Below are positions 17,541 to 19,190 of a stretch of DNA of 64,000 bases, one piece after another. This stretch comes from Bacilli bacterium (GTDB lineage Bacteria > Bacillota_I > Bacilli_A > RF39 > UBA660), in contig JAZQBG010000045.1 in NCBI GenBank assembly GCA_045545595.1, positions 594-64,593 of the forward strand, in the 5' to 3' direction. How positions within the stretch are numbered: position 1 is the first letter of the stretch; each line of letters starts with the position of its first letter. The notes under the pieces were generated by a model, which searched no databases, was not told the DNA's origin, and saw nothing but the letters and a program-made list of their open reading frames with translations. A program made the translations under genes and the position numbers.

Positions 17541-18082
17541 AGTATCCTCCTTCCATAAAACATTTTAATATGTTATATAAAAGTATTCTACCAATTTTTA
17601 ATGGAAGTTTCGCACTTTATTTTGACATTACCTTAAAAATATAAGTAATAAATTATAATTTATTACTCTACATTAACTACTTTACTAAATAATTTTGAAT
17701 TCATAAAGTATAAAATGATTGTTATGACTATACTTTCATAAACTGTTGCAAGTGGTAATAATGAATTTTTAATAAGTTCAACAAATCACTATCTATCAAA
17801 TTTATTATAACACAAACGTATCAAAAATTAGGACGTAAGATCTATTAGTCTAATATAAATAAGTGTTTTGTACAAAAAACTACATTTGGACAAGCAAAAA
17901 AGCCCGAATAAATCGGACTTTTTATAACATTTAAACTTATAATCCTAACGTTTACTAAATTAGCGTTCCTTTATTTATGGGGTTTTACAAGCCATTTGTA
18001 GCCTACGTGTCGCCTACATAACAGGTCCCCAGTGTTCTTAGTAGTACCTTAGTAATTTTTTACACATTTTTAAATTATATTA

Positions 18083-18111
18083 TTGATTATAGAACATTTG
18101 TTTGTTATAAT
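18083..18111 (+). promoter_or_regulatory. sigma-A-type promoter of small-peptide locus 1
   Basis: TTGATT -35 at 18083-18088, 17-nt spacer, extended -10 TGTTATAAT at 18103-18111. Homologous to the promoter at 42101-42129. Confidence 0.45.
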
Positions 18112-18174
18112 ATATCTTGGAACATTTAATAAGTTGGGTGGAGCCAAACTTCTTGACAGAAGGGAGGCGAGAAT

Positions 18175-18258
18175 ATGAACAAGAAGGATTTTTTAATTCT
18201 ATCTTTAGTAATTATTATCTTCCTTTTACTATTCTTACTATTTATAGTATTAATATAA
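18175..18258 (+). CDS. 27-aa hydrophobic peptide (type I toxin-like small membrane protein)
   Basis: GGGAGG SD 8 nt upstream of ATG. Sequence MNKKDFLILSLVIIIFLLLFLLFIVLI. Not in ORF track (too short). Confidence 0.4.
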   Translation: MNKKDFLILSLVIIIFLLLFLLFIVLI

Positions 18259-18261
18259 AAG

Positions 18262-18350
18262 AAATCCACCTAACTCAGCAATGATTTAGGTGGAATCGAA
18301 TTTATTCGGCAACACTCAACATGCGACATTAAGTGTTCCTTTTTTATTTT
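18262..18350 (+). terminator. stem-loop plus rho-independent terminator of small-peptide locus 1
   Basis: 8-bp hairpin ccacctaa/ttaggtgg at 18266-18293. Second hairpin aacact...agtgtt followed by CCTTTTTT at about 18318-18350. Confidence 0.45.
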
Positions 18351-18447
18351 ATGAAGTTTCCTTCATCTATATACAATATATCATAAATTTATATTTTTAT
18401 CAAGCCATATACGTACTTAACAGTATCTTAGTAATTTTTTACACTTT

Positions 18448-19029
18448 TTACTTTTGAGATTTTTTCCTTGATTCATATAAGCTAATAGCTCTTGGTAAAC
18501 CATTCTCTTTTGCTATATTCAAATAATAATCAGCTAATTCATAGTCAACAGGAGTTCCATTTCCATTGAAATAGAAATTAGCTCCCAAATCATATATAGC
18601 AGCAATGTGACCTTTATCAGCACATTCTTTAATAATTTCAAATGCCTTTTTATGATCTTTTTCTATATTACCAAGTCCAAAATAATAATATGCCCCTGTT
18701 ACAAATTTAGCATACGTTTTTTCTACATCAGAAATGTTATGACTATTTATTAATTCAATAATTTTAGGATAGGCGTCATTTAAAAGACCTTTTGCTTTGT
18801 TTTCATCAACAGTTAATGCATCACCCAAACCTAACTCATAAGATATACCTAATGAATATGTACATAATGGATAATCTATATCAAATCCTTTTTTATAGTA
18901 ATAAAGGGCCTTACTATAATCATGTGCTGCCTCATTTTCCTATAAGTCATAACTTCTTCCTAATAAATAATAAGCAAATCCTGTCTTATTCTTTTCTAAA
19001 TCTTGTAAGTTAAATTTTATTATTTCCAT
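18448..19029 (-). pseudogene. Sel1/TPR-repeat protein with in-frame TAG at codon 30 (or N-terminally truncated product from M at 18828)
   Basis: ATG at 19029 starts MEIIKFNLQDLEKNKTGFAYYLLGRSYDL. TAG at 18940-18942 follows. The same frame continues ENEAAHDYSKALYYYKKGF... into ORF 18448..18828. Sel1-like repeats AYYYFGLGN, AIYDLGANFYFNG. Confidence 0.45.
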
Positions 19030-19141
19030 ATGACACCTCTTTCATTAATTATATCACAAACTCTTAAATTTGTAGCCTACATGTAGCCTACTCGTAGCCT
19101 ACGACGCTAGAAACGTTCAAAAATCAATTTTTTAGACATGC

Positions 19142-19170
19142 AAAAAGCCCGTAATTTCGGGCTTTTTGAA
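19142..19170 (-). terminator. rho-independent terminator of rplM-rpsI operon (bidirectional hairpin)
   Basis: agcccg-taattt-cgggct perfect stem flanked by A-run/T-run. Confidence 0.7.
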
Positions 19171-19190
19171 ACATATTGAATAGGTATTTC

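Follow-up and report, generated by a model that had tools for sequence, protein, structure and literature searches.

The 3′ end of rpsI, the gene for ribosomal protein S9, was analysed in a 64-kb window (the whole stretch of DNA examined, 64,000 nucleotides of contig JAZQBG010000045.1) from a Bacilli bacterium of an uncultured gut lineage, with a GC content of about 27%. In this window, rpsI is followed by a 1,246-bp insert at positions 17952 to 19197, at whose two junctions the last codons of the gene and a terminator occur twice. The insert is probably an integrase-less integrative element seated in the rpsI 3′ end, similar to a cis-mobilizable element (CIME) and moved in trans by a phage integrase. 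An initial annotation had proposed a small integrated element here rather than native sequence, a proposal that held: all features that it listed were recovered to within 1 nt, the insert is missing from a close relative (contig L001; other loci are likewise given L numbers), and elsewhere the same ends enclose different cargo behind rpsI. The target gene, the junctions and the repeats are as follows (a slash marks the point where host-type and element-type sequence meet).

19191-19610, minus strand: rpsI (ribosomal protein S9), the target gene, assigned from its PF00380 context and open reading frame (ORF).
17952-19197, minus strand: the insert itself, 1,246 bp long, delimited by an AGTAA crossover point on each side and lacking a recombinase gene.
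19131-19209, minus strand: proximal junction core (attL-like), comprising the rpsI 3′ end CAATTCAGTAA/GAGATAG, the element-type spacer GGAAATACCTATTCAATATG and the terminator T_R.
19141-19151 and 19158-19168, minus strand: stem of T_R, with a fold of −18.5 kcal/mol.
19072-19102, minus strand: three tandem arm repeats, GTAGGCTAC on the rpsI strand, with an 11-bp period (P′-arm-like side).
17998-18017, minus strand: two distal arm repeats, GTAGGCGAC-AC-GTAGGCTAC on the rpsI strand, with an 11-bp period (P-arm-like side).
17945-17979, minus strand: distal junction core (attR-like), comprising the element box CATAAATAAAGGAAC and then GCTAATTTAGTAA/ACGTTAG.
17884-17944, minus strand: native rpsI spacer and terminator T_L (stem 17897-17907 and 17914-17924), displaced 1,246 bp from rpsI.

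The initial annotation described flanking repeats of about 43 nt. These were found at 17888-17930 and 19134-19174 with an intrinsic-terminator hairpin in each copy, but the repeat extends over about 80 nt and starts 18 nt inside rpsI. Over the full length (17884-17964 versus 19131-19209, the last 18 nt of rpsI included), 60 of 81 positions (74%) were identical. On the rpsI strand, the left and right hairpins fold with −13.3 and −18.5 kcal/mol, respectively, and both are good intrinsic terminators. The left copy carries AATTTAGTAAACGTTAG on the sense strand, a second 'FSKR-stop'; since both copies read FSKR-stop, the 3′ end of the target gene and its frame are restored.

An exact look-up of the RpsI protein returned a single contig, L001 (ENA, 685 nt), in which the protein was 100% identical and the rplM-rpsI DNA was 97.5% identical to the window. 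The two sequences diverge just where rpsI ends: in L001, the gene finishes with ...CAATTCAGTAAACGTTAG, a single terminator comes next, and neither the insert nor GTAGGCTAC repeats are present in the 161 nt of contig beyond rpsI. In a three-way alignment of the two window copies and L001, the left copy reads AATTTAGTAAACGTTAGGATTATAAGTTTAAATGTTATAAAAAGTCCGA... on the rpsI strand, that is, the last rpsI codons followed by the lineage's own spacer and terminator. It matched the rpsI 3′ flank of L001 at 58 of 66 positions (88%), compared with 79% for the right copy, T_R. The active rpsI end of the window is AGT AAG AGA TAG, whereas L001 and the left copy have AGT AAA CGT TAG, which encodes the same protein in other codons; the element now provides roughly the last two codons together with the stop (19191-19197; AAG AGA TAG versus AAA CGT TAG in L001). 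At the distal core, the sequence is element-type up to AGTAA, and ACGTTAG onward is the displaced native rpsI end, which matches L001. The switch between host type and element type thus falls at AGTAA in both junctions (19202-19198 and 17956-17952), and this sets the size of the insert at 1,246 bp (17952-19197). Judged from the alignment, the left copy represents the native rpsI end and terminator of this lineage, and the right copy is the one that arrived with the element. A duplicated end of this kind is the signature expected of integration into a gene 3′ end by an element that carries a replacement end. Two details of the initial annotation changed accordingly: the insertion point lies inside the last rpsI codons rather than at the terminator, and the right copy, which does terminate rpsI now, is element-borne, while the left copy is the native one.

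A profile was built from homologous junctions elsewhere together with the window's own reconstructed junction. With nhmmer, it matched the 64 kb exactly twice, at 18031-17884 (E = 8e-32) and 19209-19067 (E = 3e-32). The flank repeats are best read as attL and attR cores. A local duplication, in which slippage or unequal homologous recombination doubled the terminator and unrelated DNA gathered in between without any site-specific recombinase, was also weighed. The copies are direct repeats, the pair at 74% identity is by itself only weakly above the window background, and locus L011 has a plain 126-nt duplication (97%) at the same place without arm repeats. However, the proximal copy is nearer to the element ends of other species than to the native copy, unrelated hosts also keep the box CATAAATAAAGG..GCTAATTTAGTAA that precedes the distal copy, a profile derived mostly from other genomes matches both ends (E about 1e-32), and the same plan occurs as a contiguous attP in phage contigs. 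Local duplication is contradicted by this cross-genome homology of the ends and appears very improbable. The insertion in L011 (10396-11825) is a different one at the same rpsI position. Its 126-nt direct repeat runs from the rpsI end to the start of the next gene, without GTAGGCTAC arms; its cargo is a DUF3644 plus EC042_2821 nuclease-like protein that matches the PADLOC candidate defence gene PDC-S19, and a hairpin with a perfect stem of about 95 nt lies at 11520-11615.

The inner gtagcctac repeats noticed in the initial annotation were present as two units on one arm and three on the other, with an 11-bp period. Exact copies of GTAGCCTAC are located in the window at 17998, 19072, 19083 and 19094 only, with a one-mismatch copy at 18009. 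When one mismatch was allowed on both strands, 12 matches were obtained against 4.4 expected, a number reached in 0 of 100 shuffles. In 1.2 Mb of related loci, GTAGGCTAC was present just downstream of rpsI only (L007, L049, L057 and L073) and in one orientation. The array of three lies at the same distance from rpsI in L049, L057, L178, L187, L190 and L206, and the distal pair also ends cassettes in L057, L007, L093, L114, L135, L140, L142, L143, L192, L193 and L206. Two or three copies of a second motif with an 11-nt period, TAAGAC(A/T)C, lie immediately outside the distal pair of GTAGGCTAC units, for example in L140 (oriented about 2030-2066), L114, L206 and L130, and in the window (18034-18060); it could be the binding site of a second protein, for example an excisionase.

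Two readings of these repeats do not involve integration. The first is a dispersed element of the repetitive extragenic palindromic (REP) or miniature inverted-repeat transposable element (MITE) kind, which the initial annotation had raised as a possibility. Each unit is a near-palindrome, and the units are short and stand in tandem. No other exact copy exists in the window, and the confinement of the copies in 1.2 Mb of related loci to one place and one orientation behind rpsI leaves this reading the least plausible of all those weighed. The second is a native regulatory region, in which GTAGCCTAC units would be operators (for example, for the neighbouring XRE regulator) of the cargo gene and a small RNA, with a merely convergent likeness between the terminators. 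The array of three abuts the −35 position of the Sel1 cargo gene, its end lying about 18 nt before the −10 element, and the helical period of 11 bp and the near-palindromic units would suit such sites, which often occur this way for activators. In unrelated contigs, however, the repeats accompany different cargo genes as well as integrase genes of phages, they are missing from the 161 nt after rpsI in L001, and the remnant of rpsI codons at the left end is left unexplained; we consider the operator reading quite improbable.

Homologous ends around unrelated cargo were found behind rpsI in four GTDB species representatives (L007, L049, L057 and L073) and in more than 20 low-GC contigs from metagenomes. 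The proximal ends of L049 and L057 follow the window almost base for base: rpsI, TTCAATGTTTCAAAAAGnCCG...CGGGCTTTTTT, about 45 nt, and then AGCGTC-GTAGGCTAC with three units. The proximal spacer and terminator also stand after rpsI in L049, L057 and L092, and they resemble the phage attL in L341-L343. The distal ends of L057 and L007 consist of GTAG(A/G)CTAC-nn-GTAGGCTAC, about 16 nt, and CATAAATAAAGGnAnGCTAATTTAGTAA, followed by each host's own terminator, and the distal box is kept in L007, L057 and all internal junctions of the tandem arrays described below. The cargo differs by host: L057 carries a P-loop protein, L007 a 180-aa ORF and L073 an ORF of no assigned family. The window and L057 differ in their switch point; as a conjecture, a 7-bp overlap GAGATA(G/A) resolved either way would fit both.

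A scan of metagenomes for two adjacent units returned at least 120 contigs, at least 23 of them low in GC, and 16 of these 23 had rpsI immediately upstream. Tandem arrays were present in L114, L135, L206, L143, L192 and L142. Their internal junctions follow one plan over about 190 nt: two arm repeats, the box, GCTAATTTAGTAAGAGATAG (a mimic of the rpsI end), a terminator and three arm repeats. In L114 (oriented 2446-2628), two junctions stand back to back with zero cargo between them. The cassettes are 0.6-1.9 kb long and hold one or two ORFs, always in the orientation of rpsI; the cargo of the family includes four GNAT acetyltransferases, a short-chain dehydrogenase/reductase (SDR), an extracytoplasmic function (ECF) sigma factor, a histidine phosphatase, a Nudix protein and an alpha/beta hydrolase. 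The attP reconstructed for the window, its distal end joined to a spacer and terminator of the T_R type, occurs uninterrupted in L093.

The cargo of the window consists of a gene for a Sel1-repeat protein and a small peptide module. The features of the former, and of a longer repeat that adjoins it, are listed here.

18448-19029, minus strand: Sel1-repeat protein gene, 193 codons with TAG at codon 30 (18940-18942), Pfam Sel1 match.
19048-19056, minus strand: extended −10 element TGaTATAAT of the cargo promoter, a consensus match only, present in the intact copy L327.
18034-18070: copy a of a 37-nt repeat, 86% identical to copy b; the two bracket the peptide module.
18413-18449: copy b, TAAAAAATTACTAAGrTAy..TAAG, the canonical outermost distal end, directly after the cargo stop codon.

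The premature stop that the initial annotation reported in the Sel1 gene is an in-frame TAG. The protein had 475 matches at E ≤ 0.001, of which the best 120 were intact, at 192-206 aa (mostly 192-193). The closest homologue among the matches listed, in L327, is 95% identical, lies in the same cassette behind an array of three repeats, and is intact, with GAG where the window has TAG (a G>T nonsense change). Because of this intact copy, the Sel1 gene of the window appears to be a recent pseudogene; a sequencing error is less likely. Sel1 homologues of 77% identity were also found in L328-L332 (around 5001-5582), in low-GC islands that have no GTAGGCTAC repeats and hold a MobV relaxase, an AAA_25 protein, Fic, a beta-lactamase-fold gene and GNATs. 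The 18-nt exact repeat of the initial annotation was confirmed at 18048-18065 and 18427-18444 and proved to be longer, as part of the 37-nt repeat with 86% identity. The sequence of this repeat also follows the cargo stop codons in L154, L136, L143, L193, L142 and L057. In this subfamily, the repeat is the usual outermost portion of the distal end; in the window, it is duplicated around the peptide module.

The toxin-like peptide gene of the initial annotation was likewise found, as a 27-aa ORF on the plus strand within the following module.

18083-18352, plus strand: toxin-like transcription unit, with a strong promoter-like site TTGATT-17-TATAAT (18083-18111) and Shine-Dalgarno sequence GGGAGG.
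18175-18258, plus strand: 27-aa hydrophobic ORF, MNKKDFLILSLVIIIFLLLFLLFIVLI.
18265-18294, plus strand: hairpin, followed by a terminator that ends in a T-run at about 18352.
18255-18403, minus strand: predicted convergent antisense RNA, with a promoter-like site TTGATA-17-TATATT (18403-18375, TG extension) from a promoter scan.

The 5′ end of the predicted peptide mRNA pairs with its 3′ end, with a fold of −65.4 kcal/mol and a z score of −6.2. The antisense terminator is formed by the hairpin 18294-18265 and TTTCTTTT, and the predicted RNA (fold z score −5.7) overlaps the 3′ untranslated region (UTR) of the peptide mRNA. The module is about 99% identical in L093 and L152 (92-99% between hosts), with an identical 27-aa ORF in both; there it follows other cargo genes, and the rpsI DNA of these contigs is only 72-74% identical. 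In L327, 17 of the 84 nt of the peptide ORF differ, while its frame, length, hydrophobic character and hairpin stems are kept, and the antisense promoter region is 95% conserved. The ORF is thus under purifying selection and has its own promoter and Shine-Dalgarno sequence. It had no match in Pfam or PADLOC, and a search of 17700-19300 against Rfam at permissive E-values gave chance terminator-like matches only. We read the module as type I toxin-antitoxin (TA)-like and as a candidate for a new type I toxin family, one that could stabilise the cassette. It is similar to the type I systems of Firmicutes (par/fst-RNAII, txpA-RatA and bsrG-SR4) in its short hydrophobic ORF with its own promoter and Shine-Dalgarno sequence, its structured predicted mRNA, and its convergent promoter-like site, which would give an antisense RNA over the 3′ UTR with a separate terminator. 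Unlike Fst, TxpA and BsrG, the peptide has no charged C-terminal tail, and it matches no Rfam, Pfam or PADLOC family.

A tblastn search with int85, int86 and the Tn916-type Int of L103 found no integrase in the 64-kb window or in any low-GC rpsI cassette locus, and there was no int, xis or relaxase gene among the ORFs and Pfam matches of the 1,246-bp insert. The element was therefore filed as an integrase-less derivative rather than an autonomous one. It has the properties of a CIME, namely ends homologous to phage attP and attL and no genes for integration or transfer, with mobility itself presumed. In phage contigs, three to five GTAGGCTAC units lie directly 3′ of related tyrosine integrase genes (L085, L086, L097, L151 and L194). 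A scan with the 16-mer AATTTAGTAAGAGATA gave more than 120 matches and was too unspecific as such; after filtering, it led to a prophage at rpsI, L303, which reads ...CAATTTAGTAAGAGATAG, terminator, GTAGGCAAC in three units with an 11-nt period, a reverse int and CI/Cro. Scans of viral contigs for the distal-end box and for the motif of two units plus AAA gave zero matches. The integrase family of L303 is large, with listed members 49-98% identical, one of which is named by NCBI as coming from a Bacilli metagenome-assembled genome. Members in contigs with a GC content of 0.28-0.29 were either integrated at rpsI (L336-L338 and L341-L347) or present with a contiguous attP (L333-L335). The integrated prophages, L303 included, share the order core, terminator, three 11-bp repeats, reverse int and CI/Cro, and an equivalent array of three lies between the rpsI-type core and int in L303, L333, L336 and L341-L347. 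In L333-L335, the contiguous attP lies between a lysin gene and int and reads ATAGCCAAC-AG-GTAGCCAAC, about 35 nt, CCACAATTCTCAAAACGATAG, terminator, about 45 nt, three GTAGCCAAC and int. The junction profile detected this L333-type phage attP with E = 1.6e-7.

The arm 9-mers of the rpsI phages vary (GTAGCCAAC, GTAACCCAC, GTAGCACAC, GTAGCC[T/C]AC and GTAGGCAAC), as do the N-termini of their integrases. The 9-mers associate with the integrase N-terminal variants, and on this association the predicted arm binding rests. The 9-mer GTAACGTAC was noted among related integrases (L333, L336, L341-L347, L303 and L340), of which P0187 (L340) uses the 3′ end of a different gene. In phage lambda, the attP core lies between arm-type Int sites, P1 and P2 on one arm and P′1-P′3 in tandem by int. 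The lambda-type organisation is found here as two and three GTAGGCTAC units in the window, and as two units, core, terminator, three units and int in L333. The likeness extends to a core identical to the target and to integrases with an extra N-terminal domain. The differences are that the sequences are unrelated, that the core here is long and mimics a gene end with its terminator, that the cassettes lack int, and that Int binding is presumed. Because phage attP and lambda attP have this matching two-plus-three layout, the inner repeats are best read as arm-type integrase sites, and GTAGGCTAC units are putative sites of the integrase N-terminal arm-binding domain. Other observations on integrases and phages at these sites are that the rpsI phages L333 (9647-10705) and L334 (4102-5160) carry an RVT_1 reverse transcriptase beside tail genes, which suggests a diversity-generating retroelement; that an array of three stands behind rpsI in the higher-GC Firmicutes contigs L103 (195-2321) and L203, followed by an int86-like remnant and a Tn916-type integrase (PF02920); and that Anoxybacillus kestanbolensis (L081, 10516-11313) has an integrase gene right after rpsI.

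In the proposed mechanism, recombination by a tyrosine integrase would have taken place between an attP of the phage type and the attB of the chromosome. The attP would have had the order two arm repeats, box, mimic of the last rpsI codons, terminator and three arm repeats, and the attB would have been the real rpsI end with its terminator, with an exchange at or just after AGTAA, in the Ser-Lys codons. An exchange at this place would leave the rpsI protein unchanged, with element-supplied codons and the element terminator in use and the native end 1.25 kb downstream. Because the element has no integrase, its integration and any excision would need one in trans, for which a temperate phage of the same lineage, sharing the site and the attP plan, would be a likely source. 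Excision is predicted to leave a circle junction ...AAAGGAACGCTAATTTAGTAA/GAGATAGGAAATACCTATTC... and a restored site ...CCTCAATTCAGTAA/ACGTTAGGATTATAAG.... It seems fairly likely that the cassettes are currently mobile in trans.

Several points weigh against an element of this kind. Neither an excised circle nor a restored empty site from the same population is in evidence, and six integrase-family look-ups gave no integrase with both rpsI core specificity and exact GTAGGCTAC arms: the phages with GTAGGCTAC arms have other cores, and the rpsI phages have other 9-mers. L001 is not a clean empty-site allele. The initial annotation expected relatives in which rpsI leads directly to the XRE gene past a single terminator; the single terminator is present in L001, but a GntR-like gene follows instead of XRE there, and in L002 it is cwlD. 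The cargo of the window is a pseudogene and its proximal arm is about 55 nt shorter than that of L327, and the window copy may for these reasons be decaying. Since the cassettes were found by seeding on GTAGGCTAC, the apparent size of the family and the conservation of its ends are biased. Proximal ends were 82% identical compared with 77% for the adjacent rpsI, an excess that mostly disappeared when the seeded repeats were discounted. Because the excess is largely due to this seeding, the comparison was not used as a test of transfer between species. The cassettes of L206 and L130 showed no contrast in identity with their rpsI genes.

In a further alternative, an internal deletion of a full-size rpsI prophage or integrative mobilizable element (IME) removed int and the rest, so that the window holds a dead remnant that was never a mobile unit of its own, and the family consists of independent decay products. 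The classical explanation of CIMEs is that they arise by decay from larger elements (PMC5704250). The window copy shows signs of decay, namely the nonsense codon and the deletion of about 55 nt next to the array of three relative to L327; L103 and L203 hold an int86-like fragment right after the array at rpsI; and the integrase-family look-ups did not identify a helper integrase. Nevertheless, more than 20 independent cassettes of 0.6-1.9 kb have both ends complete with one or two cargo genes only, and their cargo is always oriented with rpsI, whereas the phages have a reverse int and small reverse ORFs at that position. The cargo is not phage-like (GNAT, SDR, ECF sigma factor, phosphatase), one peptide module occurs with three different cargos at about 99% identity across species, and the arrays hold several such units in a row. 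On balance, decay of a larger element seems rather unlikely, and an integrase-less element moved in trans is the reading that we prefer.

The rpsI 3′ end is an established tyrosine-integrase site in streptococci, where long direct repeats, tandem accretion and integrase-less CIMEs have been documented (PMC5357655, PMC5704250). The CIMEs, IMEs and integrative conjugative elements described there (IMESag-rpsI; integrase families Tyr_4/5/7) share with the window the rpsI 3′ end as target, gene-restoring long direct repeats, attL and attR without an integrase, and tandem arrays (PMC5357655, PMC5704250). By contrast, the IMEs of streptococci have a mean size of about 10 kb and encode an integrase and a relaxase, and the CIMEs are described as decay products, whereas the cassettes of the window family, 0.6-1.9 kb long, hold one or two cargo genes, have strongly conserved ends and lack genes for mobilisation. 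Their autonomous relatives are temperate phages rather than IMEs or integrative conjugative elements, and their hosts are uncultured low-GC gut Bacilli.

Integron cassettes and clusters of attC sites lacking integron integrases (CALINs) are similar in being small, mostly single-gene units without a recombinase, stacked head to tail at one site, rich in GNATs and with a possible TA stabiliser. They differ in that the arrays found here lack IntI and attI and each cargo apparently has its own promoter, and in that the junctions are attP of about 190 bp, of the double-strand type with arm repeats, rather than folded attC hairpins. An integron was rejected because no integrase lies beside any array, with rplM-rpsI upstream and housekeeping genes downstream. 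attC sites were rejected as well, since the junctions consist of direct repeats, a gene-end mimic and a terminator; single-strand folding of the whole junction was not looked at in depth. The repeat-element, simple-duplication and operator-array explanations were rejected on the evidence given with each. In staphylococci, staphylococcal cassette chromosome (SCC) and pseudo-SCC elements form tandem cassettes at the 3′ end of rlmH (orfX), some of them without a recombinase, and direct repeats restore the gene end. The window family resembles them in its tandem cassettes at the 3′ end of a conserved housekeeping gene; SCC elements differ in using large serine recombinases (Ccr), in having short repeats without arm sites, and in being far larger. 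Literature searches on the GTAGGCTAC-type 9-mer and on integron-like systems in Firmicutes returned nothing relevant, and a family of tiny integrase-less cassettes at rpsI in uncultured gut bacteria is apparently undescribed.

The surroundings of the insert are variable in this clade. The neighbouring genes are listed here.

19623-20060, minus strand: rplM.
16983-17540, minus strand: XRE regulator with a transmembrane tail, beyond the inserted segment from rpsI.
16219-16878, plus strand: collagen-repeat gene.
15426-16100, minus strand: cwlD.

Among 185,579 species representatives, the closest RpsI was only 83% identical, and each of the best matches came from a metagenome-assembled genome with the label Bacilli, 'Tenericutes', UBA660 or CAG:460. 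Across 80 related loci, 0.15-8 kb of variable DNA separates rpsI from a downstream cwlD and an Abi_2 gene; in L002, the closest species representative, cwlD comes directly after rpsI. Because the intervening DNA varies to this extent, the rpsI-cwlD interval is a variable spot in the clade. The collagen-triple-helix repeat gene between the XRE regulator and cwlD has 46-50% GC against the 27% background and is not present in L002. About half of the 80 loci encode, downstream of rpsI or cwlD, a counterpart of the Abi_2 (abortive-infection-like) protein of the window (13354-14301, minus strand) with 56-69% amino acid identity; such conservation is unusual for a supposed defence gene. Just upstream of rplM, a bacterial sugar transferase (Bac_transf, 20339-20970, minus strand) is split into two ORFs that cover profile positions 1-73 and 102-178; it is the second gene close to the insertion that looks like a pseudogene. 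A transfer-messenger RNA gene (tag GKNNYNFAPSFA) at 24401-24761 and an L10 leader at 52036-52159 were the only Rfam matches of the window at the gathering threshold.

As far as we found, the combination seen here has not been described in streptococci: a conserved family of cassettes that hold one or two genes and have complete attP ends of the phage type, in recurrent tandem arrays behind one ribosomal gene, in a lineage recovered from metagenomes only. We tentatively suggest, as a possibility that is less secure than the origin proposed for the single element, that the rpsI 3′ end in low-GC gut Bacilli is an integron-like platform for gene capture, where attP-bearing cassettes are stacked, shuffled and moved between species by borrowed phage integrases, with type I TA modules as stabilisers. 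If the cassettes are moved in trans by phage integrases, they would form a Gram-positive analogue of integron cassette capture that works through double-strand attP sites. The locus also offers a natural series of pairs of integrase N-domains and arm sites in which the evolution of arm specificity may be followed. If the interpretation is true, the junction profile would be a simple signature for accessory genes, possibly including resistance or defence genes, in uncultured gut bacteria.

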